From a virus: 62,284 nucleotides of DNA. Every line of letters begins with the position of its first letter. Within the stretch, counting starts at the first letter, position 1. Below the pieces are notes generated by a model. It was given only the letters and a program-made list of their open reading frames with translations, was not told where the DNA came from and made no database searches. The stretch covers positions 1 through 62,284 of the IMG/VR virus record IMGVR_UViG_2919730853_000001. The stretch is one strand, 5' to 3'. Positions 539 to 47,600 of this stretch are shown piece by piece. The translations under genes and the position numbers were made by a program.

Positions 539-566
539 TGTCCTAAAAGTAGATCAGCTTGCAAGT
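539..566 (+). promoter_or_regulatory. Phage-specific bipartite promoter-like motif TGTCCT-N16-GCAAGT (copy 1)
   Basis: Exact motif and spacing, 22 nt upstream of the ATG at 588. Confidence 0.6.
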
Positions 567-587
567 CTCCACACGGAGGCGATAAAA

Positions 588-1334
588 ATGAATGAAATTA
601 TTGAAACTATCAAATACGGAATTGAACCATACGAAATTAAGAAAGAACTTAAATTTGAGTTATTGACTGAACCAACAGAGATTCCAAAGGGTTCAGGGCT
701 ATACATGATTATGTCCGGTGACAAAGTGCTTTACATTGGAGAGTCTTCAGTTTTGCGTCGAAGAGTACATGCACATATGAGAGGGTCTGACGTTACTGAA
801 AAGTTCATGGAAGAGTGGACACATATTCTAATCACTAAATCGGAAATGAATAAGAATGTACGCACTTTAGCTGAATCACTTCTTATTGAAAAGTACAGCC
901 CTAAATACAACACGTCGGACACTAAGCGTTTAATCGATAAGTACGGAAGTATGGAAGTAGTTATGGATTTAGTCTACTACTTACGTGTAGTTGGCTTAGA
1001 GTTTGCGTATGTTGCTGAAGAGTTCAATATAACAAGAAATGCCGTTGAGAACATAGCTAAGAAAGCTACTGCTAGTAATATAGAAGTTCCTATGGATTAT
1101 GTTCCTACAAAGAAACTGGATATGACAAGAACAAGGGCTATGCGGTCTACCATTACTAAGAGTCTTTTCTATACGGCTTATGATTATCTTCAAAAGGATG
1201 GAATTGTTCAAAGGGACTTAACACGCCTGTACGGAATTCCTGAAGGCACTATTAACGCTATTAAAAAAGCGTCCACAGAAAAATATAAACGTTGGTTAAA
1301 AGAAAGAGAAGAAAGCGAACTTACCACTGTCTAA
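588..1334 (+). CDS. GIY-YIG family endonuclease-like protein with two C-terminal HTH-like repeats
   Basis: 248 aa. Motifs GLYMI, VLYIGES, RRRVHAH and LIEKYSPKYN. RBS GGAGG lies 8 nt before the ATG. Repeated segments NITRNAVENIAKKA and IPEGTINAIKKA. Confidence 0.7.
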   Translation: MNEIIETIKYGIEPYEIKKELKFELLTEPTEIPKGSGLYMIMSGDKVLYIGESSVLRRRVHAHMRGSDVTEKFMEEWTHILITKSEMNKNVRTLAESLLIEKYSPKYNTSDTKRLIDKYGSMEVVMDLVYYLRVVGLEFAYVAEEFNITRNAVENIAKKATASNIEVPMDYVPTKKLDMTRTRAMRSTITKSLFYTAYDYLQKDGIVQRDLTRLYGIPEGTINAIKKASTEKYKRWLKEREESELTTV

Positions 1335-1354
1335 TGACGGTGGTATTTTTTTTT
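1324..1354 (+). terminator. Rho-independent terminator
   Basis: Stem CCACTGTC/GACGGTGG followed by a T9 run. Confidence 0.7.
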
Positions 1355-1376
1355 GGAATTAATTTAGTGTAAGGTA

Positions 1377-1405
1377 TTGTAATTCACAGTCATGTAGTGT
1401 AATAT
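1377..1405 (+). promoter_or_regulatory. Sigma-A-like early promoter TTGTAA-N17-TAATAT, with a GTAAGG leader at 1413-1418
   Basis: The hexamers and spacing were read directly. The leader resembles those of the early cassettes at 56-60 kb. Confidence 0.5.
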
Positions 1406-1450
1406 ACTAAGAGTAAGGAATACGAATTAAATAAACGGAGGGGACACACA

Positions 1451-1630
1451 ATGAAATCCTTTGAACAGTTAATGGCTACACAGCCGGACACGGGATTGGA
1501 CAAGCTGGATGAATTACTGGTCAAGCACATCGAGATCATGAACGCATTCAGAGAAAATCTAAGTGAAATAGTTGATTACGCTAATGAAGCAGTAATGGAA
1601 AGATATAATGAAAGAGGTAATGGACAATGA
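1451..1630 (+). CDS. Hypothetical protein (59 aa)
   Basis: Below the ORF-track length cutoff. RBS ACGGAGGGG is upstream. The stop overlaps the next start (ATGA at 1627-1630). Confidence 0.5.
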   Translation: MKSFEQLMATQPDTGLDKLDELLVKHIEIMNAFRENLSEIVDYANEAVMERYNERGNGQ

Positions 1631-2175
1631 CAACTGAAAAAGTAACTAAGAAAAAGAAATCAATCTTCAAACGCTGGTGGTTTTGGGTGGTACTAGTTAT
1701 CCTTATTGGGGCGGTTGCTTCAGGAGGAAGTGGCGACGATACGGATAAAATCACAGATGAAGGTTCTACCAGTGAAACAACTAAAGCAGATAAAGGTATC
1801 ACAAGCGAAGCAAGCACTGAACCGAAAGAGGAAGCACCAAAAGCTGAACCTACAAAAGTGTGGGAAGGTAACGGGGTTACAATCTACTTCAAGGAAGCTA
1901 ACGATGAAGGACTTAAATTCCTAGTAGAAAACACTAATGATAAGTCGGTAACAATCCAGGCTGATAGTGTATCATTGAATGGCTTCTCTTCAAATGACAT
2001 TATGATGTCTGACGACATTTCACCGAACTCTAAAGGATATGCAACTGCAATGACTTCTGAATTATCAGATGCAGGAACACCGGAAAAAGTAAGTGGTAAC
2101 TTAACAGTAATTGATTCAGATACATTTGATACAATCGCAAACGCACAGTTTACAGATGTACCAGTAAATAAGTAA
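1627..2175 (+). CDS. Membrane-anchored protein (N-terminal TM helix, S/T/E-rich linker, beta-rich C-terminal domain)
   Basis: 182-aa ORF. KKKKSIFKRWWFWVVLVILIGAV is a signal-anchor-type segment. Translationally coupled to the upstream ORF. Confidence 0.6.
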   Translation: MTTEKVTKKKKSIFKRWWFWVVLVILIGAVASGGSGDDTDKITDEGSTSETTKADKGITSEASTEPKEEAPKAEPTKVWEGNGVTIYFKEANDEGLKFLVENTNDKSVTIQADSVSLNGFSSNDIMMSDDISPNSKGYATAMTSELSDAGTPEKVSGNLTVIDSDTFDTIANAQFTDVPVNK

Positions 2176-2184
2176 AATAAGGGG

Positions 2185-2209
2185 TAGGGCTACGTGCCCT
2201 ATCTTTTTT
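2185..2209 (+). terminator. Rho-independent terminator
   Basis: Stem TAGGGC/GCCCTA followed by a T6 run. Confidence 0.6.
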
Positions 2210-2226
2210 ATTTAGGAGGAATAGTG

Positions 2227-2535: not shown

Positions 2536-2556
2536 CGAGATAAGCGTCTTTTTTTT
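2520..2556 (+). terminator. Rho-independent terminator
   Basis: 10-bp stem GACGTTTATC/GATAAGCGTC followed by a T8 run. Confidence 0.7.
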
Positions 2557-2583
2557 GTCTCAAAAAGCCCCGAAACTGCAAGT
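2556..2583 (+). promoter_or_regulatory. Bipartite motif TGTCTC-N16-GCAAGT (copy 2)
   Basis: Lies directly after the terminator T-run, upstream of the methyltransferase gene. Confidence 0.55.
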
Positions 2584-2618
2584 AACCACCTGTAGCAAAA
2601 CTACAGGGAGGTTGTTAG

Positions 2619-3758
2619 ATGTATACAGTAAATTCATTTTTCTGCGGTGGCGGTGGGTTCGATTTAGGATTCATTAACGCTGGCTTTGAAGTGGTTGGGG
2701 CTTGGGACTTCGACAAATATGCAGTACAATCCTATGCACACAATATCGACACGTTAGTTAAAGAAGCAGACGTTAGTACAATGTCATGGAGAGACTTACG
2801 ACCAGCTTCAGTATGGTTGTTCGGGTTTCCGTGTCAGGATATAAGTATAGCTGGACTGAAAGCAGGAATGATTAAAGGAGAAACTAGAAGTGGTCTTTTC
2901 TATGAAATCATGCGATTGCTGCAAGAAGTTCGAACTGCTACCCCTGGATCTCTTCCTGAAATTATACTTGCCGAAAACGTCAAGGCAGTAAAGAAGTACT
3001 TACCTACGATTGAAGAAGAGTATGCCAAGGTGGGCTACAAGATGTACTACGTTCTGTACAATTCAAAGTATCAAGGTTTAGCCCAAAACAGGGAACGTTA
3101 TTTCATCTTGGGTGTTCGAGAGGATATTAAACAAACGTTTGTTTTTGAAGAACAACAGACTGAATTTGTGCCAAAACTGAAAGACTTTCTAGAAGATCAT
3201 GCCGACGAAAAGTTTTATGTAGAGGATATTAAAGCACTTCATATCATTGAAAAAGCTGAAGAAGGGCTTCGAGTAAAACAGGCTACCAAGAAAGGTTACG
3301 ATGTTGCAGTAGAGGGCGACATGATTAATGTTACCCGTCCTAATAGTAAAACAAGACGTGGCCGCATTGGAAAACAGATAGCACAAACGCTATTAACTGG
3401 TCATGAACAGGTTGTAGTTGAATCGTTACCTACTATCAATGTTCTAGGAATGTTGGACATTAACGGTCATGACAATATTCGTCGTGTCTATGATGTTGAC
3501 GGGTTAAGCCCAACACTCAATACCGGAGGCGGTGGAAATCGCCAACCTAAAATTTTGGACTACGATAGATTAAAGGTAAGGAAATTAACACCGAGAGAAT
3601 TTGCTAGGCTTCAGGGTTTTCCAGAGTCATACCAACAAGTAGTATCTAACGTTCAATTCTATAAGCAGATGGGGAATGCCGTATCTGTTCCTGTAGCTGA
3701 ATTCGTGGCAGGGCAGATTAAACAGTACCTTGAATATTTAGAAATGTGTTCTAATTAA
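2619..3758 (+). CDS. dcm: DNA (cytosine-5)-methyltransferase
   Basis: FCGGGGFDLGF (motif I), FPCQDIS (IV), ENV (VI), QNRERYFILG (VIII), TPREFARLQGFP, GNAVSVPV (X). Confidence 0.9.
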   Translation: MYTVNSFFCGGGGFDLGFINAGFEVVGAWDFDKYAVQSYAHNIDTLVKEADVSTMSWRDLRPASVWLFGFPCQDISIAGLKAGMIKGETRSGLFYEIMRLLQEVRTATPGSLPEIILAENVKAVKKYLPTIEEEYAKVGYKMYYVLYNSKYQGLAQNRERYFILGVREDIKQTFVFEEQQTEFVPKLKDFLEDHADEKFYVEDIKALHIIEKAEEGLRVKQATKKGYDVAVEGDMINVTRPNSKTRRGRIGKQIAQTLLTGHEQVVVESLPTINVLGMLDINGHDNIRRVYDVDGLSPTLNTGGGGNRQPKILDYDRLKVRKLTPREFARLQGFPESYQQVVSNVQFYKQMGNAVSVPVAEFVAGQIKQYLEYLEMCSN

Positions 3759-3770
3759 TCAATATATAGA

Positions 3771-3802
3771 CCTCACTATTAATTTAGTGGGGTTCTTTTT
3801 TT
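3771..3802 (+). terminator. Rho-independent terminator
   Basis: Stem CCTCACTA/TAGTGGGG followed by a T-run. Confidence 0.7.
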
Positions 3803-3829
3803 GTCCCATTTCGCCTGAACTTCGCAAGT
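3802..3829 (+). promoter_or_regulatory. Bipartite motif TGTCCC-N16-GCAAGT (copy 3)
   Basis: Exact spacing, abutting the terminator. Confidence 0.55.
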
Positions 3830-4704: not shown

Positions 4705-4735
4705 GCGTGGGGCTAGTCCTCACGTCTTTTTTTTT
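4704..4735 (+). terminator. Rho-independent terminator
   Basis: 9-bp stem GGCGTGGGG/CCTCACGTC followed by a T9 run. Confidence 0.7.
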
Positions 4736-4820
4736 ATGCCCGAAAACCTGTATTTGGGCGGTGTTTCTTACACCTTTTAGTAGGACGTTGCATCGGCAAC
4801 AAATTACAGGAGGTGGCACG

Positions 4821-5509
4821 GTGAACCTGAAAGGAAAAGTAAAGGGAAAGTCTTATGAAGAGTGGATTAATCGCCTTCAGGAGATTGACAACTTTCTCGA
4901 TAGAGTAAAAGAAAAAGCACAGCAAGGCAAAGAAATGTCAAGAGAAGTACTAGAACGTGCTGTAATGCTAAAGAAGGAACGGGAACAGTGCGAACGTATC
5001 ACTAGATGTTGGGGCAGTACATTAGAGTACATGTATGAATATTTTTCGCATGACAAGAATCCTGAAAATGAAAATAATTTAATTCCCGAAGGCATAGGCA
5101 TTGAGGACGCACCAGCCTTTCATAGAGAGTTAACGGACTATTTGGATAGCTACCATTCAGACCCTACACAACGCATCGCATGGAGTGTCCCACGAAGCCA
5201 TGCGAAGTCCACATACCTTTCGAATATGTACCCACTGTACAATATTGTCTATAACTTACGGTCATTCATAGTCATAGTGTCTGAAACACAAGACGGTGCT
5301 AAACTGTTCGCTGACTACGTTAACAATCAACTAAAGCACAATGCAAAACTACGTGAAGATTTTGGCGAATTAATGGACGAAACTGGACGGGGAAACATTA
5401 AGGATAATGCAGAGAAGTTTGTAACAAAGAACAATATAATGGTAGCCATTGGTTCAACGCAGAAACAATTGCGAGGCATGAAGTTCCTCAACGCGAGACC
5501 TGACTTGAT
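4821..5509 (+). CDS. terL: Terminase large subunit, exon 1 (ATPase N-terminal part with Walker A)
   Basis: GTG at 4821 follows RBS AGGAGG. Walker A PRSHAKST is at 5190-5213. The frame ends ..RPDLI, then W and a stop, unless it is spliced. Confidence 0.75.
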
Positions 5510-5773
5510 TTGGTAAAACTGGTCACTTTTAGTAGAAATACTAATCGAACATCGGGCAATATCGGTAAACGCTGAAACGCCAATACCGAGATAAGGTAGA
5601 GGAGTAAAGACCTCTACCCATCGTAACGCATAGGTGGTGAAACTGCTTGCAGAATATAACCCACCCAAGAGTGTCCGACACCTAAACGTAAAGTCGTAGG
5701 TGAAAATGTATGCTGAACTATGACGAATACAAGTCATAGAAGTAAGGATAAAAAGCCTTGCGATAACATATTG
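5510..5773 (+). ncRNA. Group I-like self-splicing intron (ORF-less) within terL
   Basis: Removing it restores RPDLIILDDLES (Walker B). It starts after a U, ends in G, and contains multiple hairpins. Confidence 0.6.
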
Positions 5774-6806
5774 CATTTTAGATGATCTCGAATCGGAGAA
5801 GAACACAAACACGCCTGAACTAAGACAGAAGAACCTAACATGGTACACCAAAGTAATTAACCCACTTGGAGACCCACAACGTACCGGTTTCATTTACATG
5901 GGTACATTGGTGAACCCTAATGGACTGCTGCCATATGTAATGCAACGTGCTGATTTCAAAGCGAAAAGATATTCGGCTATCGTTTCCCCACCTGACAACG
6001 TTGAAATGTGGGAAGAGTATGAAAGAATTTATCGTGACGTTGAAGACCCTGACCGTAAAGATAATGCGGAACATTACTACTTTATGAATCAAGAAGAAAT
6101 GGATAAGGGCACGGAAGTATTATGGCAAGACAGAATGCCTTACTACAAACTCATTCAAGAGAAATGTAACGTTGGTACAAGGGCATTCAACAGTGAGTAC
6201 TTGAATCTACCATACAGTGACGAAGACGCTATTTTCAGACAAGAGTACTTCACATTCTATGACGACAAAGACCTGTACGATGATTCAGGGCGAATGATAC
6301 CATTGGAATATTATGGATTTTGGGATGTTGCCATTACAGGTAAGGGAGACTACAACGCTATCATTACACTTGGTAGAGACCGACGCACTGGCATCTTTTA
6401 CGTTGTAGATGCATGGGCGGCAAAGGTCAATGCACATGAGGCACTTAAAATGGCAGAGAATAAAATACTTGAATACAATCATCACACATTTGGAGTTGAA
6501 ACTATTCAGGCACAATGGTCTATGTTTCAACAGTTAAAAGTTAACCTCTCTAAACGTTCGTATTTCAGAACTAGGTTGAAAGCAGTTAACCCACGTACAA
6601 AGAAAGAGATTCGTATTGAGGCACTTGAACCACTTGTAGAAGCAGGACAGATACGTTTTAAACGACAACATAGGTTATTGCTGGAAATGTTGGAATTATT
6701 TCCACAACATGAACACGATGATCTACCCGATGCATTGGCATCTTGTGTAGACATGGCTGGCACACACCGCAAAAGAATGTTTCAAAATAAACCGAAAGGC
6801 TGGTAG
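5774..6806 (+). CDS. terL: Terminase large subunit, exon 2 (Walker B and nuclease domain)
   Basis: The frame is open from 5775 (ILDDLESEKN...) and is the same frame as the 5898..6806 ORF. The C-terminal part is typical of a terminase nuclease domain. Confidence 0.75.
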
Positions 6807-9707: not shown

Positions 9708-9867
9708 ATTTTCACTACAAACACAATTAATTTTCGCTTTTGCGAAAAAAGTTTTACTTTGCACCTGTAATTTAGGGGGTGTTTGTAGACAGGTATAATA
9801 GGAAGGTTTATTTACTGTTCCTGACTGTACGTGATAGCAACTTCCAACACAGTCAGTGACAGTGCAT

Positions 9868-9943
9868 TGAAGTATAACTCAGTTGGTAGAGTGACGCACT
9901 GTTAATGCGTTTGTCGCTGGTTCGAATCCAGCTACTTCAGCCA
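9868..9943 (+). tRNA. tRNA-Asn (anticodon GTT) with encoded CCA
   Basis: Manual cloverleaf: acceptor TGAAGTA/TACTTCA, D stem ACTC/GAGT, anticodon stem ACGCA/TGCGT with loop CTGTTAA, T arm GCTGG-TTCGAAT-CCAGC. Confidence 0.85.
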
Positions 9944-29612: not shown

Positions 29613-29656
29613 GTGGTCATTTAGAACTAGTTTCTCTATAGGGAAATAAAAAATAG

Positions 29657-31271: not shown

Positions 31272-31299
31272 TGTCCCGAACGCTTAGTCGTTTGCAAGT
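31272..31299 (+). promoter_or_regulatory. Bipartite motif TGTCCC-N16-GCAAGT (copy 4)
   Basis: Exact motif upstream of 31326. Confidence 0.55.
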
Positions 31300-31325
31300 G
31301 TACCCATGTAACCACTAAAGAAAGG

Positions 31326-34221: not shown

Positions 34222-34285
34222 ACTAATGTTAGTACTAGTATCGGTATCGGTGCTAGTACTCAATTTAATACTAGGAGGGAAACTA

Positions 34286-34492
34286 ATGTCAGAGTTGGCA
34301 AAATTACAAGCAAAACTATTTAATCGTATTGGAATGAAAGTACTTCACGGAACTAAAAGAGGAATGATGTGTACATTCAATGTAGAACAGAAGGGCGAAG
34401 GATTGACAGTAAGCTATCTAGTCGATTTTGAAGACCATTATGAGTGGGTGAATGAATCGGAACTAGTTTTCATTAAGGGCACAGAAATATGA
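34286..34492 (+). CDS. Hypothetical protein (68 aa)
   Basis: RBS TAGGAGGGA precedes the ATG at 34286. The longer track ORF starts inside the helicase gene. Confidence 0.5.
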   Translation: MSELAKLQAKLFNRIGMKVLHGTKRGMMCTFNVEQKGEGLTVSYLVDFEDHYEWVNESELVFIKGTEI

Positions 34493-35445: not shown

Positions 35446-35447
35446 AA

Positions 35448-35479
35448 AACCCTGTCCGGTACATTGGACAGGGTTTTTT
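35448..35479 (+). terminator. Rho-independent terminator
   Basis: Perfect 10-bp stem AACCCTGTCC/GGACAGGGTT followed by a T-run. Confidence 0.85.
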
Positions 35480-35533
35480 ACCATATATACTAGTGCTAAA
35501 TAATCAATTTTGTTCATGGAAAATTCACACGTA

Positions 35534-35650
35534 AGAGGTCAGACCTCTAACAACGTGATAACCATGCGGTCTTTCGCTATCGACGAAATTGTTTATACAA
35601 TTTATCTAGCAAATCTTGGCATTGATTCGTGATATACACGATAGCGAAAG
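35534..35650. other. Structured non-coding segment: 15-nt palindrome AGAGGTCAGACCTCT plus a 12-bp long-range inverted repeat
   Basis: CTTTCGCTATCG at 35571-35582 pairs with CGATAGCGAAAG at 35639-35650. A nested hairpin AAATTGT/ACAATTT lies between them. Confidence 0.6.
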
Positions 35651-36016
35651 TATTGTATGATATACGTACGGCTTAGTGAGGTACACGGCAATGTACTTTT
35701 TCACTATTATTAAACACAAAATAACACAAAGTATACATATGGCATTCTTGCGTATCGCAGGGGTATAGATAGGTCGGCAAACTTCTCTATATCACTGTAC
35801 GCTTATTCGGCATTCTTAAAACTTTAAAAATCGTTTCAAGCTATTCAAGGGGATTTTTCTGCCCTTTTATAGTTTTATAGCCCCCGTCTGTCCTTTTTAC
35901 CGAACATTCGTTCGTAAAAAATAAGAACAGGTACGGTTTATTTGTCATGCCTTCTTTTAGTTTATACCCAAAGAAAGATGATTGAAACCTTTTTTTAAAA
36001 CTTTTTTTAAATTCCG

Positions 36017-36044
36017 TGTCCCAAAGCTAGGTCGTTTTGCAAGT
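36017..36044 (+). promoter_or_regulatory. Bipartite motif TGTCCC-N16-GCAAGT (copy 5)
   Basis: Exact motif upstream of 36092. Confidence 0.55.
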
Positions 36045-36091
36045 TACCACATGTATACGAAACAAAACAGACCTGAAGGTGGAATTTAAAA

Positions 36092-36838
36092 ATGAAAACT
36101 TACTATGAAATCGTTGGAACTAAAACTTATCGTCAATTAACTCTTGTTGAGAAAGAAGCTATTCAAGATCGTCAAACTGAATTAGTTCAGCTATGGCAAG
36201 ATGAATCACTTCCTGAAAAACAAGAATTAATCTTCGATGAACTTTACGATTCGTTTAAAGGACTAGTTAAGGCAATGGCTTACAAGAAGTCAGAACAAAG
36301 TTACACAGTAGATATGGATGATTTTGAAGGGCTAATTAATTTAACTCTTGTTGAATCACTACTATCTTTTGACCGAACTTTGAACAAGCCTTTCCAACCT
36401 GTATTCATTATGAATGTTAACAACGCTGTGAAAATGATGTATCGCCAAAAAGGTTATGACCTACACGATACAACTTATTCAAGTGCGAAGCAACGACTAG
36501 ATGCTGATGGGGGTCTACTATCAGATGGTTCTAAAGTAGATGTTTCCGAAAAGCAATTATCGTCGCAAGCGACTTTAACAGTTACTTCACAAGTGGACTT
36601 CACAATGGAAGTTGAACACTCGATGGTGACAGAGAAAATTCTATCGGGTCTCTTTGGCATGGACGAAATTAAGAAAACTATCGTTCACATGCATCTACAG
36701 GGCTTTAAACGTAATGAAATTGTTTCAGCGATTGCAGAGGAAGGTAAGTCTTCAGATTCCCTAGCAAAGAAGGTTAATAGAACCTTATCGAAATTTAAGG
36801 ATGCTTACGCTTTAGTGCATGAAAGTGCAATGGCGTAA
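36092..36838 (+). CDS. Sigma-70-family-like transcription factor (region 2-like and region 4-like segments)
   Basis: 248 aa. DDFEGLINLTLVESLLSF..VNNAVKMMYRQ, and a C-terminal HTH-like segment LQGFKRNEIVSAIAEEGKSSDSLAKKVNRTLSKF. Confidence 0.45.
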   Translation: MKTYYEIVGTKTYRQLTLVEKEAIQDRQTELVQLWQDESLPEKQELIFDELYDSFKGLVKAMAYKKSEQSYTVDMDDFEGLINLTLVESLLSFDRTLNKPFQPVFIMNVNNAVKMMYRQKGYDLHDTTYSSAKQRLDADGGLLSDGSKVDVSEKQLSSQATLTVTSQVDFTMEVEHSMVTEKILSGLFGMDEIKKTIVHMHLQGFKRNEIVSAIAEEGKSSDSLAKKVNRTLSKFKDAYALVHESAMA

Positions 36839-37028
36839 GTCACCCTGCATCACTTTACCTGACTTATGTAATATTAGCATGTATTTCCTCCTGTTCCAAG
36901 AGAACGCTTGTTCTGAAATAGACTTTTTTTACTATTAATTTGAAATTTTTGTATTGACCGATGGCATTAAGTCGAAAAACTGCTGACCTAAATTAATAGC
37001 TTAGAAAGCTTCAGGAGGAAAATACATT

Positions 37029-37715
37029 ATGACATTATTTACAGCAACAGGTGAAGAGGCAAAAAAATCAGCTTCAGCAAAGAACGTAGACCTTAAAACG
37101 GCTTACATTCGTCTGAAGGAAAATGAAGCAGTACGAGTACGAGTGTTGGGCTTAACTGATTACGTCGAATATCGTTCTCATGGAAACTATAACCTTGGCA
37201 TTTACAACCAACCATGCCGTGTGCCACTAGACGGAGAACTTGATCCCCTATGTGTCGCTGCTAAATCAGGCATCGAAGGTTTTGACCAATTAGTAGCTAA
37301 GAAACGTTATATTTTCGCACTTTACGATATTGATAAAAAAATGGTGCGTTTCTGGGACGCTTCAAAAAATCAGGCTACGAAGATGATTGCTGACATTGAA
37401 GAATACGCTGATAGCCTAGATGAAATCGCTTTCAACTTTAAGCGAACTGGAACAAAAACAGATACAGTTTACTCATTAAACCCAATCTTAAAACTAGATG
37501 CTTCAGGCAAAGAAGGCTTCGAAGCTGGTGCAGAAGAGAAGGTAGAATTAAGTCACTTTGAATCTGTATTAATTCCACGTACTGTAGAACAACAAATCGA
37601 AGCATTACGTCAAGCTGGTTTTCCAGTAGACGAGTACTTTGACGTTACGGGTAAAGAAGTTTCTGACGAAGAACTAGACTTAGAAGCTGACGAAAACCCA
37701 ATGGAAAACTTTTAA
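37029..37715 (+). CDS. Putative ssDNA-binding protein
   Basis: 228 aa between the regulator and polymerase genes. The acidic C-terminal tail ends in aromatic F (..DEELDLEADENPMENF). Confidence 0.45.
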   Translation: MTLFTATGEEAKKSASAKNVDLKTAYIRLKENEAVRVRVLGLTDYVEYRSHGNYNLGIYNQPCRVPLDGELDPLCVAAKSGIEGFDQLVAKKRYIFALYDIDKKMVRFWDASKNQATKMIADIEEYADSLDEIAFNFKRTGTKTDTVYSLNPILKLDASGKEGFEAGAEEKVELSHFESVLIPRTVEQQIEALRQAGFPVDEYFDVTGKEVSDEELDLEADENPMENF

Positions 37716-37801
37716 TTAATCGGGGGTTAATAGCCCCCACCTTTAACTTTAATACTAACTTTAATACTAAATATATTACTTATTAAATGGAGGAAACAAA
37801 C

Positions 37802-38125
37802 ATGTTAACAGGATTCGGAATTGGTTCAGGCATGAAAGCAGCACGTACAGGAGACCAAATCGATGCACAAGTAACTGCTGCACGTGGCTTACTTAACCAA
37901 GCATTAACAGCTTCAAATAACTTTGACAACATTGAAATGCAAATGCAACAAATTTCACAGATGCTAGGTCAAGTACAAGACCCTTCTATGCAAATGTTAG
38001 CTATGCAATTCCAAATGTTACAACAAAACATCGATGCTACACAGAAGCAAATTCAAGGGGCTTTAGGTCAACTATCTCCTATCATGCAAGAAATCGACAA
38101 CCTGACGAATAAAATCCAAGCATAA
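37802..38125 (+). CDS. Gln/Met-rich coiled-coil protein
   Basis: RBS GGAGGA precedes the ATG at 37802. Contains MQMQQISQMLGQVQDPSMQMLAMQFQMLQQ. Confidence 0.55.
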   Translation: MLTGFGIGSGMKAARTGDQIDAQVTAARGLLNQALTASNNFDNIEMQMQQISQMLGQVQDPSMQMLAMQFQMLQQNIDATQKQIQGALGQLSPIMQEIDNLTNKIQA

Positions 38126-38148
38126 TTAAATAACTCATTCAGCTTAAA

Positions 38149-38184
38149 AGGACATACCAAAAAACGGTGTGTCCTTTTTCTTTT
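38149..38184 (+). terminator. Rho-independent terminator whose 3' arm overlaps the next promoter box
   Basis: Stem AGGACATA/TGTGTCCT followed by a T-run. Confidence 0.6.
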
Positions 38185-38197
38185 CTAAATCGCAAGT
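38170..38197 (+). promoter_or_regulatory. Bipartite motif TGTCCT-N16-GCAAGT (copy 6)
   Basis: Exact motif upstream of the polymerase gene. Confidence 0.55.
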
Positions 38198-38218
38198 GTT
38201 CCCATGAGGTGAAGACAT

Positions 38219-40519
38219 ATGGAACTAAATTTCAATTTAGAAATGTTCGATGAAGAGAAAGAAAAGATTGCACGTGTTAAAGAAGCAGAAAGAAAGAAGG
38301 CACTTAAAGAATACCAACCTACTGATGATGAATTATGGTACACGGGATATGACACTCATACGGGTAGACGAAAAGCTGGTATCTTTCAAACAAAGATTTC
38401 TGACGCTGATCTACGCAAGCTGGAAGCAGTAAAGCAAGCTATCGATAGTGGAGAACTTGGCAAGGGCGTAGACGATATGAAGAAGTTTACTAAATCACAC
38501 GCCCTACGATTATACCAAGTCCTTTTAAAAATCCGTCGTGAATCAATGATTAAACACATGATTGAAACGAAACCGGATAACTACATTTTAGTTCAAACCC
38601 CTGGGCAATTAACAAAGGTATGTTCTCAACTAGATAGAGAAGCACGGGCACGTGGAATTATCAGCTTAGATACTGAGACAACCGGTTTAAATATCCACGG
38701 TATCGGTGGAGAGGAATATTCGAAAATTGTAGGGTTCGTTATCACTATTCCATCTTACGATGTTAATTATTATATTCCTTTCGGTCACATCACAGGTGAA
38801 ATGATGTTACCGGAACACATTGTAGTACCAGCATTGAAACCATTTCTTGAAGCTGAAGGGCTAAAGAAGGTCTTGCATAATGCAAAATATGACATTCATA
38901 TGATGCGAAATCATGGTATCGAAATGGGAGGATTTTACTTCGACACGATGGTTGCTATGTCGCTGCTAAATGAAAATGAAATGTCATTCGCTTTGAAAAA
39001 TCTTGCTAATAGATATGGACGTTTCTTTGGTTATGAAGATAGCAGCAGTACTTATGAAGAGTTGTTCGGCAAGGGTGGATTCGAGGGCACACCGTTAGAT
39101 ATCGGAACGGTCTACGCTTGTAAAGATGGTCATTTAACTTGGATGTTTTATCAATTTATTATGGAACAGTTTGAGAAACAGCCTGAATTAAAGGACTACT
39201 ATTTCAACATAGAACAACCTATTACGCTAGTGTCTTGTGAAATGGAAAAGAACGGTTTCCTCATTGATATGGATTATGCGGAGAAATACGCTGATGAATT
39301 ACAAAAGGACGTAGACAAGCTAGAAGAGGAATTGAAGAAATACTTCGGAGACATTAACGTGAATTCTCCAAAACAATTATCTGAAACTCTTTACGATAAG
39401 TTGGGACTTCCTGACCTATCCAAGAAAAGATCAACGGACGCAAACACGCTGAAGAAGCTTGCTAGAGAAAACGAAGGTTGTAAAGTCCTTCTTGAATACA
39501 GGGATTTAAACAAACTTCTTTCTACTTATGTAATTCCACTACCACAGAAGGTAGATAAGAACGGACGTTTACATGGTCAATTTAAACAGAGTGGAACGGT
39601 TACGGGGCGTTTTTCAAGTTCAGAACCTAACTTACAGAACCTACCGAAAAAGGCTAGAAAGTTAATCAAAGCTGGTGACGGTAAATTAATCATCGGTATT
39701 GACTTCTCACAAATTGAACCACGTGTATTAGCAAGTATGAGTAAAGATGAAGTCTTTAAAGTTCCTTATGCTACTGGACAAGACTTGTATTCTTCAATCG
39801 GTTCACGTGTATTTAACAAGCCTTTAGAAGAGTGCGGAGACGGTTCACCGGAACGAAAAGCCTCAAAAGTTATTCTCCTTGGAGTAATGTATGGCATGTC
39901 ACCAAAAGCACTTGCAGATATGTTGAAAATTCCACAATACGAGGCAGAGTCATTTATTACAGACTTCTTTAATTCGTATGACGGTGTTAGTGACTTTGTT
40001 GCATTACAAAGCAAGTTAGCAGATAGACAAGGATTCGTTAAAACGTTGTTCGGACGTAAACGCAGATTCATCGGGCATCAACAAGTAGCTGAAGCTTATT
40101 ACAGAATGTGTACAAAGATTGAGGCTAAATATGGTGAAGTACCTACTGACATATGGGGTTCAGATATGGACTACAAAGATAAGGCAAGTTTTTGGAAGGT
40201 TGCTAAACCGTATGGAGTAGTAAAACGTCAATCAGTAAATGCAGTGATCCAGGGGACTGCTGCTGAAATTATGAAAATCGCAATGATTAAGTTATGGAGA
40301 CATTGTTTAAAGATGGGCTATAAAATGCTGGCGACGGTGCATGACGAAATCTTAATCGAAGTTCCTGAGAACATCACATTAGAAGAGGTTAACGCATTGG
40401 AAGAAATCATGTGTAATGCAGTTTCTTTAGATGGTGTTCCCATCAAAGTAGATACAGCAATGATGAAAGTATGGGGAGAAGAAACAGGAAAAAATGAATG
40501 GTTTAAGGAGGCAGTATAA
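38219..40519 (+). CDS. polA: Family A DNA polymerase with a 3'-5' exonuclease domain
   Basis: SLDTETTGL (Exo I), HNAKYD, DFSQIEPRVLA (motif A), RKASKVILLGVMYGMS (B), VHDEILIE (C). Confidence 0.9.
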   Translation: MELNFNLEMFDEEKEKIARVKEAERKKALKEYQPTDDELWYTGYDTHTGRRKAGIFQTKISDADLRKLEAVKQAIDSGELGKGVDDMKKFTKSHALRLYQVLLKIRRESMIKHMIETKPDNYILVQTPGQLTKVCSQLDREARARGIISLDTETTGLNIHGIGGEEYSKIVGFVITIPSYDVNYYIPFGHITGEMMLPEHIVVPALKPFLEAEGLKKVLHNAKYDIHMMRNHGIEMGGFYFDTMVAMSLLNENEMSFALKNLANRYGRFFGYEDSSSTYEELFGKGGFEGTPLDIGTVYACKDGHLTWMFYQFIMEQFEKQPELKDYYFNIEQPITLVSCEMEKNGFLIDMDYAEKYADELQKDVDKLEEELKKYFGDINVNSPKQLSETLYDKLGLPDLSKKRSTDANTLKKLARENEGCKVLLEYRDLNKLLSTYVIPLPQKVDKNGRLHGQFKQSGTVTGRFSSSEPNLQNLPKKARKLIKAGDGKLIIGIDFSQIEPRVLASMSKDEVFKVPYATGQDLYSSIGSRVFNKPLEECGDGSPERKASKVILLGVMYGMSPKALADMLKIPQYEAESFITDFFNSYDGVSDFVALQSKLADRQGFVKTLFGRKRRFIGHQQVAEAYYRMCTKIEAKYGEVPTDIWGSDMDYKDKASFWKVAKPYGVVKRQSVNAVIQGTAAEIMKIAMIKLWRHCLKMGYKMLATVHDEILIEVPENITLEEVNALEEIMCNAVSLDGVPIKVDTAMMKVWGEETGKNEWFKEAV

Positions 40520-41416
40520 ATGAGTTTAGTTTCAAAACCGACTGACCTACGGGACAGGGTTTTAAATAAGAAGAAAAGTGAGAAGCGTGGAGATAAACTT
40601 GTCCACGCTTTTTCTGAACATATAAATGCAATTAACAGTATCGATTATTTTAATGTCCTATCGGTGGAAGAGTTACTATTGAAGGAACATGCTTTCATGA
40701 TTGAGAAATTAAAATCACGTCCAAACTTCCCAAAAGGCTTAACAAGGTTCTCGCCTTCTAGTGCGGCCAAATGCGAACGGGAGTTATTTTTCAAGGCTAT
40801 TAAGGCAGAACAAGACGAAAAAACGGGGCATCCTTTTCAGCGACGTTGGACTAGAAATAGTACCGCAGTACACGGTGCAGTACAGAAACAGCTATTAGAA
40901 GCTGAAGTATTATTAGACAAGCCAAAATTTAGAGTGATGCGTCTTGCGAATGACCTTCCAGCATGGGAAAAGAACATCGAAAAAACAAAGATCATAAAGC
41001 ACGGGGGCGTGGAATTCTGTATCTTTGGAATGTGCGATGGTGTTCTGGAATATGAAGACGGTACTAAAATTGGATTCGAATTTAAGACGAAGAGTAATAG
41101 TGTAGCCCAAATTAAACAGGTGAAAGATATTAAACAGTATCAGCACCAGCTAACAGCATATTCTATTTTGTTCGGTATCAATGAATGGTTAGTAATGGTT
41201 GAGGCGGTAGCAAAAGATAAGTGGTCAACTGGCAGCATTGCAAGGGATGATTTTAAACTCTTCTATCATAAGGTATCTGAAGCAGACAGAAAGGCACTAC
41301 TAGATAAATGGGCTAGAGTTGCTATGAATGTGCAGGATGGAGAGATTAGCAAACCCGAATACAGTAAATGCCTTTTCTGCCCCTTCAAAGGAATTTGTCA
41401 AGAGGTGGGATTGTGA
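40520..41416 (+). CDS. PD-(D/E)xK exonuclease, Cas4/RecB-like with a Cys cluster
   Basis: MCDGVLEYEDGTKIGFEFKTK core. Cys at AAKCERE plus the C-terminal CLFCPFKGIC. Confidence 0.65.
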   Translation: MSLVSKPTDLRDRVLNKKKSEKRGDKLVHAFSEHINAINSIDYFNVLSVEELLLKEHAFMIEKLKSRPNFPKGLTRFSPSSAAKCERELFFKAIKAEQDEKTGHPFQRRWTRNSTAVHGAVQKQLLEAEVLLDKPKFRVMRLANDLPAWEKNIEKTKIIKHGGVEFCIFGMCDGVLEYEDGTKIGFEFKTKSNSVAQIKQVKDIKQYQHQLTAYSILFGINEWLVMVEAVAKDKWSTGSIARDDFKLFYHKVSEADRKALLDKWARVAMNVQDGEISKPEYSKCLFCPFKGICQEVGL

Positions 41417-41892
41417 GTAAGATTATACTTTCACTAGACCTCTCTTTGGCGTGTCCAGCCTTTGCAGTCCTAAAAGTAACCGATGGAAAAGTCAAGGTGA
41501 TTGAAGTTTCCCATGTGAAAACGAAAGCCAAGGATTCGACTGGACAACGCCTTTTCATTATTGCCAATCATCTGCAAGATATACTAGATAGATATGAATT
41601 CGATGCATATGTAATGGAAAAAGGTTTCAGCAAATTTCCAGTAGCTACCCAACAACTACAAAGAGTAGTAGGAGTTACACTTGTTACCCTATACCGAAAT
41701 GGTGTTATAAATGTAGGCGAATTATCTCCTACTACAGTAAAGAAAGGTATCACAGGTTCAGGTAAAGCAAGTAAAGAGGAATTAGCAACTTGTCTACATG
41801 ATTATGTAGGAGACGTTAAATATAAAACTGATGATGAATCAGATGCGGTGGGCGTAGGTATCGCCTTTGCAAAATCTAAAGGGTGGATTTAA
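41413..41892 (+). CDS. RuvC-like Holliday junction resolvase
   Basis: GTG at 41413 overlaps the upstream stop. IILSLDLS, YVMEKGF and DESDAVGVG carry the acidic catalytic residues. Confidence 0.6.
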   Translation: MSKIILSLDLSLACPAFAVLKVTDGKVKVIEVSHVKTKAKDSTGQRLFIIANHLQDILDRYEFDAYVMEKGFSKFPVATQQLQRVVGVTLVTLYRNGVINVGELSPTTVKKGITGSGKASKEELATCLHDYVGDVKYKTDDESDAVGVGIAFAKSKGWI

Positions 41893-41907
41893 TTCCACTC
41901 TTTTTTT
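41883..41907 (+). terminator. Rho-independent terminator
   Basis: Stem GTGGA/TCCAC followed by a T7 run. Confidence 0.6.
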
Positions 41908-41915
41908 ATTTTACC

Positions 41916-41943
41916 TGTCCTAAAGTTTCAGGTACTTGCAAGT
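41916..41943 (+). promoter_or_regulatory. Bipartite motif TGTCCT-N16-GCAAGT (copy 7)
   Basis: Exact motif. Confidence 0.55.
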
Positions 41944-41988
41944 GTCCACATGTAACGACCAATAACTTATAAAAAGGTGGAAATAAAA

Positions 41989-42366
41989 ATGACAGGTTTA
42001 ACTAAAAAATTAGAAGTAAATAAAGATGTAAAATTAGCACTGGATTCTGTAGCAGATTCTTCTTCATGGACAAAAGGCGAAATCATCCAAAAATCAATTG
42101 AAAAAACATGGACAACGCCACTAAGAAAACCATTAAACGAAATGAAGCTAGACGACCTTATTCAAGCACTTTATGACGGGTATGTTCGAAAAGACATTAT
42201 CATGCAAACTGGTTCACGTCCTAACCAAGAAAAGTTAGATGAACTAGTAACTTCTTATAATAAACATAAGATGGCACAGTCATATACTTACGAGGACGGA
42301 ATTTCTGACGGCATCCAATTCGCCCTTTCAAAACTGAATATTAACATTGAAGGAATTAACCTTTAA
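41989..42366 (+). CDS. Hypothetical protein (125 aa)
   Basis: RBS AAAGGTGGAAA precedes the ATG at 41989. Confidence 0.6.
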   Translation: MTGLTKKLEVNKDVKLALDSVADSSSWTKGEIIQKSIEKTWTTPLRKPLNEMKLDDLIQALYDGYVRKDIIMQTGSRPNQEKLDELVTSYNKHKMAQSYTYEDGISDGIQFALSKLNINIEGINL

Positions 42367-42376
42367 TAATTACCAA

Positions 42377-42406
42377 GGGACTAGTCAAACGGCTGGTCTC
42401 TTTTTT
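42377..42406 (+). terminator. Rho-independent terminator
   Basis: 10-bp stem (with G.U pairs) followed by a T6 run. Confidence 0.6.
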
Positions 42407-42416: not shown

Positions 42417-42444
42417 TGTCCTAAAGAAGATCCATTCTGCAAGT
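42417..42444 (+). promoter_or_regulatory. Bipartite motif TGTCCT-N16-GCAAGT (copy 8)
   Basis: Exact motif. Confidence 0.55.
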
Positions 42445-44553: not shown

Positions 44554-44567
44554 TATTAAAGGCAAAA

Positions 44568-44597
44568 GGCTGAGGATTTTTCCTCGGTCTTTTTTTT
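44568..44597 (+). terminator. Rho-independent terminator
   Basis: Stem GGCTGAGGA/TCCTCGGTC followed by a T8 run. Confidence 0.7.
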
Positions 44598-44605: not shown

Positions 44606-44633
44606 TGTCCCAAAACAATACATAAGTGCAAGT
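44606..44633 (+). promoter_or_regulatory. Bipartite motif TGTCCC-N16-GCAAGT (copy 9)
   Basis: Exact motif. Confidence 0.55.
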
Positions 44634-44670
44634 GTAAACCTGAATCGACTAATTTAATGAGGTGTTAATC

Positions 44671-45122: not shown

Positions 45123-45123
45123 T

Positions 45124-45633: not shown

Positions 45634-45671
45634 AAAGAAACCCCCAAGCTTAAATGCCTGGGGGATTTTTT
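45632..45671. terminator. Bidirectional terminator between convergent genes
   Basis: Stem CCCCCA/TGGGGG flanked by an A-run and a T-run. Confidence 0.7.
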
Positions 45672-46086
45672 ATTGTTCTTTTTTAGTTTTTCTAGCTTCT
45701 CTTTCTTTCTCCAATATTGCCTTATTCTTTTCCATTCTTCTTTCCATATCTTGCGTCATTCCTAGCGATTCTTGTAAATGTCTTTCTGTCTTAAATTTAC
45801 GTCTAGTTTCCTCTTCCATTGTAAATCCATAGAGTTGTCTAATATCTGTAATTTTTAAAGCAGATGCAATAGCAGTTATATGTCCAACATTAATAGTCGA
45901 TTTTTTATGATTCATTATGAATGAAAGCGTAGATGTTCTTATTCCGGTAAGTAGGCTTAGTTCATCTAGTTTCAATCCTCTTTCCTCTAACAATTCAGCT
46001 AGTCTACATTCTAATCCAAAATCAGGATATTCCTGTAAAACATCACGTGTAGCACCATTAGTTTGTCCATTCAAAGTATGTGTCAT
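45670..46086 (-). CDS. XRE-family HTH transcriptional regulator (repressor-like)
   Basis: LAELLEERGLKLDELSLLTGIRTSTLSFIMN HTH. Lys/Glu-rich C-terminus. One of only three - strand genes. Confidence 0.75.
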   Translation of the reverse strand: MTHTLNGQTNGATRDVLQEYPDFGLECRLAELLEERGLKLDELSLLTGIRTSTLSFIMNHKKSTINVGHITAIASALKITDIRQLYGFTMEEETRRKFKTERHLQESLGMTQDMERRMEKNKAILEKEREARKTKKEQ

Positions 46087-46161
46087 TTTATTACCGCCTT
46101 ATAGTTAATTTCCTTACAGAACAAAATTATATACGCTATAGCGAAAAAAATCAACATTTTT

Positions 46162-46189
46162 TGTCCCAAAAGTTCACACATATGCAAGT
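46162..46189 (+). promoter_or_regulatory. Bipartite motif TGTCCC-N16-GCAAGT (copy 10)
   Basis: Exact motif in the divergent region between the XRE gene and 46231. Confidence 0.55.
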
Positions 46190-46230
46190 TACACACTGTA
46201 AGACAATGACAATCTAAAGAGGTGTAACTA

Positions 46231-46776
46231 ATGAAACAAATCAAAATCGCTGTAACAGGCGAAATAAGATCAGGCAAAGATACGGTGTGCGAATATATCA
46301 TGCGTAGGATTTACGACTGTGAAAAGCTTTATTTTGCTGAAGGTATTGAAAAAATTATTCGTGAGTTTTTCCCTGAAGCTTTTGCTAACGGAAAACCACG
46401 CAAACACTTTCAAGACATTGGAACATTTATGAGAACTATTAACGCTAATGTATGGGTTGAATATACAGCAAATAAATATTATCTCCACAATGAACTATCA
46501 TCACCTAACTTTATTTGTACTGACCTTCGACAACCTAATGAATATGAATGGTTAAAATCTGAAGGCTTTACAGTTATCAAAGTAGATGCAGATTTTGAAA
46601 TCAGAAAAGAACGTGCTTTAAAAGCTGGTGACAACTTCACTGAAGAGACATTTAATCATCCGGTGGAACAGGCTATTAGAAGTTTACCATATGACTACTT
46701 AATTACAAACAATACGACTTTAGAAGATTTATTCGAACAAGTTGATTATATATTACAGAAATTTGAGGGGAGTTGA
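46231..46776 (+). CDS. P-loop nucleotide kinase (dNMP kinase-like)
   Basis: IAVTGEIRSGKDTV P-loop. Size and downstream Arg/Asp pattern are typical of phage dNMP kinases. Confidence 0.55.
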   Translation: MKQIKIAVTGEIRSGKDTVCEYIMRRIYDCEKLYFAEGIEKIIREFFPEAFANGKPRKHFQDIGTFMRTINANVWVEYTANKYYLHNELSSPNFICTDLRQPNEYEWLKSEGFTVIKVDADFEIRKERALKAGDNFTEETFNHPVEQAIRSLPYDYLITNNTTLEDLFEQVDYILQKFEGS

Positions 46777-46783
46777 GTTTTTC

Positions 46784-47110
46784 ATGAACAAATATGAAAA
46801 CGCTTACAAATTAGAAACCGAGGCTGGTGTATCAGCTTTTTTAAATGATTATCACAAGATTGCAGAGGCACGATTTTATGCGAATGATTTAGCAATATCT
46901 GATATGCTGCTAGATTTTGAATTCGCAATGAGAAAGTGTCTAACAGAGAGACAAAGAGAGGTAGTGAAGCTTCGCTTCTTCAATGATCTACGACAGGTAG
47001 ACGTTGCCGATTTACTTAAATTGAATCAGCAAACTATTCAGGAACACATTCAGAAAGCAGTAAAAAACCTTGCATCTTATCACATGATTTTAAAGGCAAG
47101 AGGTGAGTAA
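46784..47110 (+). CDS. Sigma-70 region-4-type transcription regulator (ECF/RinA/ArpU-like)
   Basis: LTERQREVVKLRFFNDLRQVDVADLLKLNQQTIQEHIQKAVKNL. Confidence 0.6.
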   Translation: MNKYENAYKLETEAGVSAFLNDYHKIAEARFYANDLAISDMLLDFEFAMRKCLTERQREVVKLRFFNDLRQVDVADLLKLNQQTIQEHIQKAVKNLASYHMILKARGE

Positions 47111-47483
47111 GTTGAGTTTGAAATCACAATTTGAATCTGATGTAGAGTTACTTGTAAATACAAAAGAGTTGCTGCCATTAGAAATGCGTATTAAACAGGT
47201 GGAGGATTTAACAGAATGGTACTTCAAAATTGCTGGAAAGCATTATGAAGGAAGTTACTATTTAGATATGTTAGCTACATATATTTTAGCCGACACAATG
47301 AGAGATAAAGGAACTCATAAAGTACGCCATACTGAGTACCCTATTCTATCTCAATCACAACAAAAATTAAGAAATCGTAGGGAATCCCGTGTAGGTGATG
47401 ATAACCTAGATTTCATTAAATTAAGAGAAGTACACAATCATCCAAACGCATTTAAAACAGCGACGCAAAATAAGGAGGATTGA
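47103..47483 (+). CDS. Hypothetical protein (126 aa)
   Basis: ORF overlapping the upstream gene. Confidence 0.5.
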   Translation: MSKLSLKSQFESDVELLVNTKELLPLEMRIKQVEDLTEWYFKIAGKHYEGSYYLDMLATYILADTMRDKGTHKVRHTEYPILSQSQQKLRNRRESRVGDDNLDFIKLREVHNHPNAFKTATQNKED

Positions 47484-47485
47484 CA

Positions 47486-47563
47486 ATGGAGATATGGACT
47501 GCCTTATTTGCATTTGTACTATTCTTTGCATGGTTTATGAAACCTAGAGACGAGGACGAGTGA
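47486..47563 (+). CDS. 25-aa hydrophobic micropeptide
   Basis: Strong RBS TAAGGAGG lies 7 nt before the ATG. Sequence MEIWTALFAFVLFFAWFMKPRDEDE. Confidence 0.45.
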   Translation: MEIWTALFAFVLFFAWFMKPRDEDE

Positions 47564-47573
47564 GAAAATCACT

Positions 47574-47600
47574 TGTCCTTTTTTTCATTTTTTCGCAAGT
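47574..47600 (+). promoter_or_regulatory. Bipartite motif variant TGTCCT-N15-GCAAGT (copy 11)
   Basis: The spacer is one nt shorter than in the other ten copies. Confidence 0.4.

Follow-up and report, generated by a model that had tools for sequence, protein, structure and literature searches.

In phage SPO1, sigma factors supplied by the phage (gp28 for the middle promoters, gp33/gp34 for the late ones) redirect the host core RNA polymerase to -35/-10 pairs that SigA does not read, with the consensus sequences AGGAGA-N17-TTTnTTT and CGTTAGA-N-GATATT, and a temporal cascade results. On the Bacillus subtilis plasmid pBS32, the sigma factor gene sigN has both a LexA-repressed SigA promoter and a SigN-dependent promoter upstream of it (PMC6751061). 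The SigN (ZpdN) regulon is restricted to the plasmid and rich in genes for replication and nucleotide metabolism, with the prophage structural region outside it; the SigN promoter consensus is TTTACG(TTT)...AGATATAA, and the logic of the circuit has been shown experimentally (Burton et al., 2019; PMC6751061). Here I describe a candidate promoter class in the IMG/VR virus record IMGVR_UViG_2919730853_000001, a 62,284-nucleotide element that was analysed whole (hereafter the window, whose coordinates are used throughout). A reading made from the sequence alone had pointed out a bipartite motif, TGTCYY-N16-GCAAGT, in front of replication and nucleotide-metabolism genes, and had proposed that it marks a phage-specific class of middle promoters. 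My results make it likely that each copy is a promoter for the host core RNA polymerase carrying a sigma factor encoded by the element itself (36092–36838), which would also activate its own gene and would probably stand behind an SOS gate. Such a class would be a familiar form of phage regulation, here with a factor and a promoter sequence that are both new.

A two-box motif upstream of replication and nucleotide genes

The motif has ten exact matches in the window, all on the + strand (Table 1), where dinucleotide-preserving shuffles give an expectation of 0.03 and none of 100 shuffles exceeded one match. A scan of both strands against shuffles was the check that the sequence-only reading had proposed, and it returned the ten positions listed there; the motif is not equally frequent on the - strand or inside genes. 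An eleventh site with a 15-nt spacer, also noticed in that reading, is present as well. Taken alone it is weak, since one such match occurs in 4% of shuffles, and its orthologue in a related Bacillus licheniformis plasmid has the 16-nt spacer. The second box is enriched by itself too (53 copies of GCAAGT against 31 expected). A position weight matrix built from the ten sites scores those sites at 36–50 bits, and a scan of both strands with it found no other site above 8 bits, and no weaker copies, apart from the frame-shifted N15 site (12.6 bits). This gap in the scores indicates a sharply bounded set of sites, and not the upper end of a continuous range.

All 11 sites are intergenic and point in the same direction as the next gene. 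A ribosome-binding site (RBS) follows each of them, as had been claimed, and starts 9–32 nt past GCAAGT (9 nt at polA). The further claim that most copies abut a terminator holds for eight of the 11, which have a hairpin and T-run within about 45 nt upstream, but no terminator was found upstream of the copies at 539, 36017 and 46162. The overlap of TGTCCT with the terminator arm that had been noticed at 38170 is real, and recurs at 47574. No copies lie between 3802 and 31272, in the structural module, or after 47600, which bears out the absence from the structural and early regions. The genes named downstream were also correctly assigned (GIY-YIG, dcm, HTH_36/DnaD_N, polA, tdk, DNMK and TM2), and a PD-(D/E)XK nuclease and RuvC are encoded downstream of motif copies as well.

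Two boxes joined by a spacer of fixed length (16–18 bp) and free sequence are characteristic of bipartite promoters of the sigma-70 type. Here the spacer is N16 in 10 of the 11 copies, and its sequence is uninformative save for an A- or T-tract beside the first box. The intergenic, co-oriented position close to an RBS is likewise that of a sigma-70-type promoter, and is seen at 11 of 11 sites in the window and at 81 of 81 when the relatives described below are included. The boxes themselves are not those of SigA, as had been stated: a SigA promoter has TTGACA/TATAAT-like elements, and the second and sixth bases of its -10 box are A and T, whereas GCAAGT has C at position 2, and a consensus scan found no SigA-like site at any copy. 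Nor do they fit an appropriation of the kind performed by MotA/AsiA of phage T4, in which an activator box replaces the -35 element and the SigA -10 element (TAnnnT) is kept, as no TAnnnT is present at the right distance.

Conserved boxes in front of several operons are also a common property of transcriptional regulators, and a gene for a Cro/C1-type helix-turn-helix protein (45670–46086) lies beside copy 10, divergent from it. The motif could then be a repressor or activator site on promoters whose core elements lie elsewhere. However, it is asymmetric, lacks a dyad and is always co-oriented with the gene; its 16-bp spacing is that of a -35/-10 pair, and no TATAAT-like hexamer accompanies it. 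At polA, where the RBS starts 9 nt past GCAAGT, there is no room for a further core promoter. I consider this explanation very improbable. The same geometry at polA is compatible with the transcription start predicted for a promoter, 5–9 nt past the second box.

The sequence-only reading had also noticed that conservation extends past GCAAGT, which is correct: the window consensus 3' of the second box is tTGCAAGT-nnnC-aCaTG-nA. Nine of the 11 window copies, and all the instances from relatives in the 81-instance consensus, have a TG at positions 8–9 past GCAAGT, and either TAA(G/A)G or the RBS itself comes next (8–13 nt past GCAAGT, for example at 31307–31312, and also in loci L001, L017, L019 and L023–L026). 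With the predicted start, the conserved TG segment would be the first bases of the transcript. Conservation of would-be transcribed sequence, the overlap of two copies with terminator hairpins and the location of the sites at gene-cassette boundaries are all compatible with a different role, either in the RNA (as terminator, processing site or 5' leader) or in the DNA outside transcription (as a signal for module-boundary recombination, replication or packaging). Yet the 16-nt spacer shows neither conserved sequence nor conserved pairing, three copies are without any hairpin, and a search of the whole window against Rfam found one tRNA and nothing else. Recombination or packaging sites, moreover, would not need to lie a fixed short distance 5' of an RBS on the coding strand, in 81 of 81 cases. 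Of all the explanations considered, I give this one the smallest chance.

The element can be placed by its gene content and its relatives. It is an element of Priestia megaterium, in which a protein 100% identical to its sigma-like protein occurs, and the first 96 bases of the window are the same as its last 96, which indicates a circular assembly. It has a full set of siphovirus-type structural and lysis genes, and also codes for a ParA-like partition ATPase and a serine recombinase. Among its relatives are two complete circular plasmids, from B. licheniformis (NZ_CP154900.1, 59,575 bp) and B. altitudinis (NZ_CP101507.1, 60,381 bp). These gene sets and relatives identify the window, by homology, as a temperate circular phage-plasmid, of a family (∼60 kb, circular) found in Priestia, the B. 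cereus group, B. licheniformis and B. altitudinis. The collection of cultured phages searched gave no match, either by megablast with window positions 36000–42000 or by tblastn with the sigma protein; tblastn with this protein against plasmids returned the two relatives only, and a scan of genome contigs with the sigma profile returned nothing. A literature search on the box sequences gave primer noise only, and one for descriptions of such phage-plasmids found nothing relevant, which, for the library searched, does not prove that they are unpublished.

I then compared the motif across relatives, using the surroundings of sigma-like gene homologues from NCBI assemblies, JGI and Logan metagenomes, IMG/VR and PLSDB. 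The same two boxes, 16 nt apart, are present in relatives whose sigma-like protein is ∼47–62% identical to that of the window: 14 copies in the B. licheniformis plasmid, 13 in the B. altitudinis plasmid, eight within 16.6 kb of a B. cereus-group contig, and five to seven in each of four further loci of 18–21 kb. The boxes are retained at the starts of orthologous genes (initiator, sigma, polA, tdk, deoxynucleoside monophosphate (dNMP) kinase and others) in more than 15 related elements from other hosts, with diverged spacers and flanks. Over 309 kb of window and relatives, the distinct instances number 81; every one of them is on the coding strand, and the opposite strand has none. They were collected with the N16 pattern, and so all have this spacer. 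Their pooled consensus is ttt...TGTCCtaaa-N11-TGCAAGTa..tAagTGta..g. The search in related genomes that had been proposed as a check thus supports the motif. A 14-base version of the pattern, scanned against IMG/VR, gave chiefly single chance matches. At least two strict copies are present in 18 IMG/VR loci, all on one strand in 17 of these, and eight of the 18 hold homologues of genes of the phage-plasmid family.

The element's sigma factor and its proposed control

The product of the open reading frame (ORF) 36092–36838 (248 amino acids) matches no family in Pfam or PHROGs, and all Pfam sigma models failed on it; an alignment of 34 homologues gave sub-threshold hints only. More sensitive comparisons agree with the earlier description of the protein as sigma-like. 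The family profile matches region 2 of Staphylococcus aureus SigB among PDB sequences (8x6g_H, E = 1.5e-5), and the NCBIfam SigB model matches the protein with E = 8.5e-6. An AlphaFold2 model (mean predicted local distance difference test, pLDDT, 80.6) has a four-helix N-terminal domain, a disordered linker (residues 137–167) and a four-helix C-terminal domain. All 50 of the 50 best Foldseek matches of this model in the PDB are sigma factors, aligned over the whole length (240–300 columns); the template-modelling scores are low (∼0.3), as expected for two domains on a flexible linker. An exhaustive search with the profile through 1.84 billion representative proteins yielded only 10 clusters (clustered at 50% identity) with E ≤ 1e-30, along with 18 remote hits of sigma-like size, several of which have Pfam Sigma70_r2, r4_2 and extracytoplasmic function (ECF) domains above threshold. 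The protein possesses a sigma-2 domain (regions 2.1–2.4), a sigma-4 domain with its helix-turn-helix, and the overall fold, and by these profile and model comparisons it belongs to the sigma-70 superfamily. Its two-domain layout is ECF-like, and its clade is rare and missed by current family libraries. The best NCBIfam match, nearly full length (E = 1.4e-7), is to BacL2, from the Bac41 bacteriolysin plasmid locus of Enterococcus faecalis; its 31.6 bits are far under the 200 bits set as cut-off for that family. In Enterococcus, BacL2 is encoded on a plasmid and acts as a positive transcriptional regulator (bioRxiv 10.1101/2020.11.20.391417).

A sister clade of elements, with sigma proteins ∼45% identical, comprises L003 and L004 (another P. 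megaterium isolate) and L013–L016. The strict GCAAGT motif is absent from these six loci; at the same gene starts they have TGTCCT-N16-GCAATT-AC(A/G)TT, with the first box and the spacer length unchanged. Since two P. megaterium elements have different second boxes, the comparison argues that the specificity is encoded by the element and not by the host. In the sigma proteins, the alignment columns that separate the clades include residues 95–120, at the end of predicted sigma-2, while the C-terminal helix-turn-helix (FKRNEIV.A....GKS.D..A..VNRT) is nearly invariant between them. A near-unchanged sigma-4 and a changed end of sigma-2 mirror an invariant -35 box and an altered -10 box, and this is suggestive of sigma-4 reading TGTCCT and sigma-2 reading the second box. 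The residues that discriminate between the GCAAGT and GCAATT clades were listed, but the independent lineages are too few for this to count as co-variation.

The motif copy of the sigma gene is separated from the upstream primase gene by ∼570 bp of non-coding DNA (35446–36016), a length conserved in relatives. Within it, the arms of the palindrome CGAAC-N4-GTTCG at 35901–35914, the sequence of the Bacillus LexA (Cheo) box, are invariant in a five-region alignment whose mean identity is 62%, and at least nine relatives have such a box 131–242 bp before the start codon of sigma. Two or three Cheo boxes, at 31-bp intervals, are present in L006 and in the B. licheniformis plasmid (L017), with a TATAAT or TAAAAT hexamer adjoining the box. 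From this conserved position, host LexA probably controls the sigma gene. In the GCAATT clade no Cheo box was found, and the corresponding gap in L003 and L004 holds divergent helix-turn-helix genes. Region 35446–36016 also has ACACGA/TACAC repeats and inverted repeats, and may hold a lytic origin or operators. Downstream of the sigma gene, gene 37029–37715 (with a weak PHROG match to single-stranded DNA-binding proteins) has a conserved upstream block of its own at 36915–37028, common to relatives (TGACC(A/G)ATGGCATTA(A/C)GTC...AAACTG), which belongs neither to the TGTCCY class nor clearly to SigA promoters.

The proposed circuit would work as follows. DNA damage, acting through the host LexA box, would first allow the sigma factor to be expressed from a SigA-type promoter. 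In the holoenzyme, sigma-4 would read TGTCCY at about -35 and sigma-2 would read (T)GCAAGT at about -10, with a rigid spacer of 16 bp between the two. Transcription would begin ∼7 nt further downstream, where the conserved (A)TG(T)AA segment starts. The motif copy of the sigma gene would provide positive feedback, and genes for lytic replication, recombination and nucleotide salvage would be switched on, most units being insulated by the upstream intrinsic terminators, two of which would share the TGTCCT box with the promoter. One such unit carries a small activator with sigma region 4 only, which would probably turn on a different promoter class ahead of the structural genes (see below). The idea of a phage-specific promoter class is thus supported by all in-silico tests, but "middle" is better replaced by the first lytic class that depends on the element's sigma.

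The region-4-only protein is itself a rival reader, and the sequence-only reading had proposed the product of 46784..47110 alongside the sigma factor in this role. It could appropriate SigA or be one half of a split sigma, and a host alternative sigma factor could also be imagined. Its gene is conserved in relatives and sits behind a motif copy, and split or bipartite sigma factors are known in Bacillus and its phages (SigO-RsoA, SPO1 gp33/gp34). However, the protein has a region-4 helix-turn-helix and no sigma-2 part, and the product of the neighbouring 47103–47483, considered as its sigma-2 partner, matches nothing. The C at position 2 makes the second box unfit as a SigA -10 element, and ACCTGTAWT sites at the structural genes are a more natural target for a small activator. 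Against a host factor stand the different second boxes within P. megaterium and the retention of the motif across host genera. A reader other than the 36092–36838 protein is unlikely in my view, and for the 46742–47110 protein a function as late-gene activator is more likely, judging by its domain content, than the reading of TGTCCY promoters.

Several observations speak against the proposed sigma circuit. The region-4-only gene is also behind a motif copy, such that autoregulation does not single out the 36092–36838 protein. The contrast between GCAAGT and GCAATT rests on two or three independent lineages, in which co-variation is inseparable from shared ancestry. Conservation for ∼12 nt beyond the second box is unusual for sigma-70-type promoters and has no explanation in this scheme. 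One Cheo box per 62 kb is not significant by count, and a convincing SigA -35/-10 pair on the box was not found in the window or in relatives other than the B. licheniformis plasmid and L006. Finally, L010, L012 and L025 have another palindrome, TCTGA-N-TCAGA, in the corresponding part of the region, and L023 has no Cheo box at all.

There is also a bolder proposal, which I regard as doubtful. The whole Bacillaceae phage-plasmid family would run on one switch, with LexA gating a private, orthogonal and self-locking sigma factor; sister lineages would have altered the gate, with the other palindrome (L010, L012 and L025) or helix-turn-helix genes (L003 and L004), and the -10 box, from GCAAGT to GCAATT. 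The TG(T)AAgG segment, 8–13 nt past GCAAGT, would perhaps be a second functional element, of a sort absent from ordinary sigma-70-type promoters, and could be a contact for the sigma factor or a cofactor, or an mRNA-stabilising 5' leader.

Other candidate promoter classes and features of the element

The structural genes have a motif of their own. ACCTGTAWT occurs seven times in the window against 1.4 expected, and four copies are intergenic and on the + strand: the one 5' of terL (Table 1) and those at 9763 (in the tRNA and capsid region), 14611 (before 14663) and 27830 (before 27902). The terL copy is conserved in both complete circular plasmids. In three of the four copies (4746, 9763 and 14611) the box is followed, 22 nt downstream, by a TATAAT-like hexamer, which fits an arrangement of the MotA/AsiA type, and these sites look like activator-dependent SigA promoters, a candidate late class. 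Such a motif at the structural genes explains the absence of the TGTCCY class from them.

From 51.8 to 62.3 kb, in the early and maintenance region, the partition, recombinase, anti-restriction-like and small genes have SigA-like promoters, TTGACT/TTGACA-N17-TAnAAT, adjoining terminators. The sequence pattern would therefore make the TGTCCY-N16-GCAAGT class one tier of a three-tier promoter layout. A tandem array at 61630–61970, with about seven TTGACA-N16/17(...TTTTTTTATG)-TATnnn units ∼55 nt apart and no ORFs between them, could be protein-binding iterons or a cluster of strong SigA-type promoters. Some intergenic regions also contain AT-rich TTAACTTA/AGTTTAAC repeats, for which a comparison with shuffles showed no enrichment.

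The two HTH_36 initiator paralogues of the element differ in the sequence upstream of them: the one at 31326–32198 heads the motif-driven helicase-primase operon, and the one at 29939–30871 is preceded not by a TGTCCY motif but by a SigA-like TTGCAT-N17-TAATAT site near 29655. This difference suggests that plasmid maintenance and lytic replication may have separate initiators.

Some further features were noted. The terL gene is split: residues 41–268 of ORF 4707–5516 match residues 4–231 of the B. licheniformis TerL (82% identity), and the translation of 5820–6806 matches residues 247–574 (86% identity). The gap of 260–300 nt without an ORF (about 5517–5775) is probably a small intron, going by these alignments; no Rfam group I or II model matched it, even at E ≤ 1. 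A tRNA-Asn (GTT) gene at 9868–9943 lies in the structural module, just 3' of one ACCTGTAAT box. Between the lysis genes and the partition region, 49914–51110 on the - strand encodes a protein of 398 amino acids that contains a DGQHR domain and weakly matches DndB; it may be associated with DNA modification or related to defence. Across the circular junction, 62100–62284 joined to 1–340 is strongly strand-asymmetric, T-poor and rich in C and A. It contains CAGGCAAGGCAG repeats, repeated CCCC(T)ATAT units and GTAGTAGTAG runs, and may serve as an origin, a centromere or a packaging site.

Table 1. Candidate promoter motifs, operator sites and regulator genes of the phage-plasmid, in window coordinates.
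Feature	Position	Strand	Context
Motif copy 1, TGTCCT-N16-GCAAGT	539..566	+	5' of GIY-YIG nuclease gene 588-1334
Motif copy 2	2556..2583	+	5' of C5-cytosine methylase gene 2619-3758; after terminator 2520-2548
Motif copy 3	3802..3829	+	5' of ORF starting at 3855, function unassigned; after terminator 3769-3794
Motif copy 4	31272..31299	+	5' of operon 31326-35445 (DnaD/HTH_36 initiator, DnaC-like loader, DnaB helicase, primase)
Motif copy 5	36017..36044	+	5' of sigma gene; proposed autoregulatory promoter
Motif copy 6	38170..38197	+	5' of polA (family-A DNA polymerase); TGTCCT is the 3' arm of terminator 38146-38178
Motif copy 7	41916..41943	+	5' of ORF 41989-42366; after terminator 41878-41903
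Motif copy 8	42417..42444	+	5' of thymidine kinase and deoxynucleoside kinase genes; after terminator 42375-42402
Motif copy 9	44606..44633	+	5' of small ORFs from 44671; after terminator 44564-44593
Motif copy 10	46162..46189	+	5' of dNMP kinase and region-4-only regulator genes; divergent from Cro/C1-type helix-turn-helix gene
Motif copy 11, N15 spacer	47574..47600	+	5' of TM2 and nucleoside 2-deoxyribosyltransferase genes; TGTCCT inside terminator 47552-47580
Divergent sigma-70-family factor gene (sigma-2, linker, sigma-4)	36092..36838	+	Proposed reader of the motif
Putative LexA (Cheo) box CGAACATTCGTTCG	35901..35914		∼105 bp upstream of motif copy 5
Second Cheo-like palindrome AGAACGCTTGTTCT	36901..36914		Just 3' of sigma gene; conserved in several relatives
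Candidate late-promoter box ACCTGTATT	4746..4754	+	5' of terL
Small protein gene, sigma region 4 only	46742..47110	+	Behind motif copy 10; probable late-gene activator
Cro/C1-type helix-turn-helix regulator gene	45670..46086	-	Divergent from motif copy 10

Comparison with known systems

Gram-positive phages are known to encode small proteins that activate their late operons (PMC3753634). The 46742–47110 protein resembles the RinA/ArpU-type late regulators among them in being small, with a sigma-4-like helix-turn-helix, and in being placed to activate a packaging/structural operon; these regulators are not known to read promoters of the TGTCCY-N16-GCAAGT class. For the sigma factor, SPO1 offers the precedent of a sigma supplied by the phage, but the consensus sequences differ, and SPO1 is a large virulent myovirus without an SOS gate. 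Autoregulated ECF (group 4) sigma factors share with the 36092–36838 protein the combination of sigma-2 and sigma-4 without sigma-3, a 16-bp spacer and a promoter of their own class. Their AAC (-35) and CGT (-10) cores are absent from the motif, whose consensus is TGTCCt...TGCAAGT, and no anti-sigma gene is evident.

If correct, the circuit offers a concrete map of regulation, open to testing, for a still uncharacterised phage-plasmid family of circular ∼60-kb elements, in which SigA-type maintenance and early promoters would be followed by SOS-gated, sigma-dependent replication and nucleotide units and then by an activator-dependent late operon. A compact promoter in two natural dialects, arranged in terminator-promoter cassettes, would also supply orthogonal sigma/promoter pairs for Bacillus engineering.

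The closest known system is SigN of pBS32, with the same circuit logic, an unrelated sigma factor and a different consensus. In both cases a sigma factor gene on a prophage-bearing plasmid has a LexA box upstream (predicted in the window, at 35901–35914) and a nearer promoter of its own class (proposed for the motif at 36017), both conserved in the relatives of the window, and a regulon of replication and nucleotide genes that leaves out the structural genes. The 36092–36838 protein is not a detectable homologue of SigN (L022:21324–21923), with no BLASTP similarity and an hhalign probability of 21% over region 2, and TGTCCY-N16-GCAAGT differs from the TTTACG...AGATATAA promoters. The 84-kb pBS32 carries a cryptic prophage, whereas elements of the window type look like intact phage-plasmids of ∼60 kb. 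This comparison suggests that the SigN logic of pBS32 may be one case of a wider strategy among the plasmid prophages of Bacillaceae.

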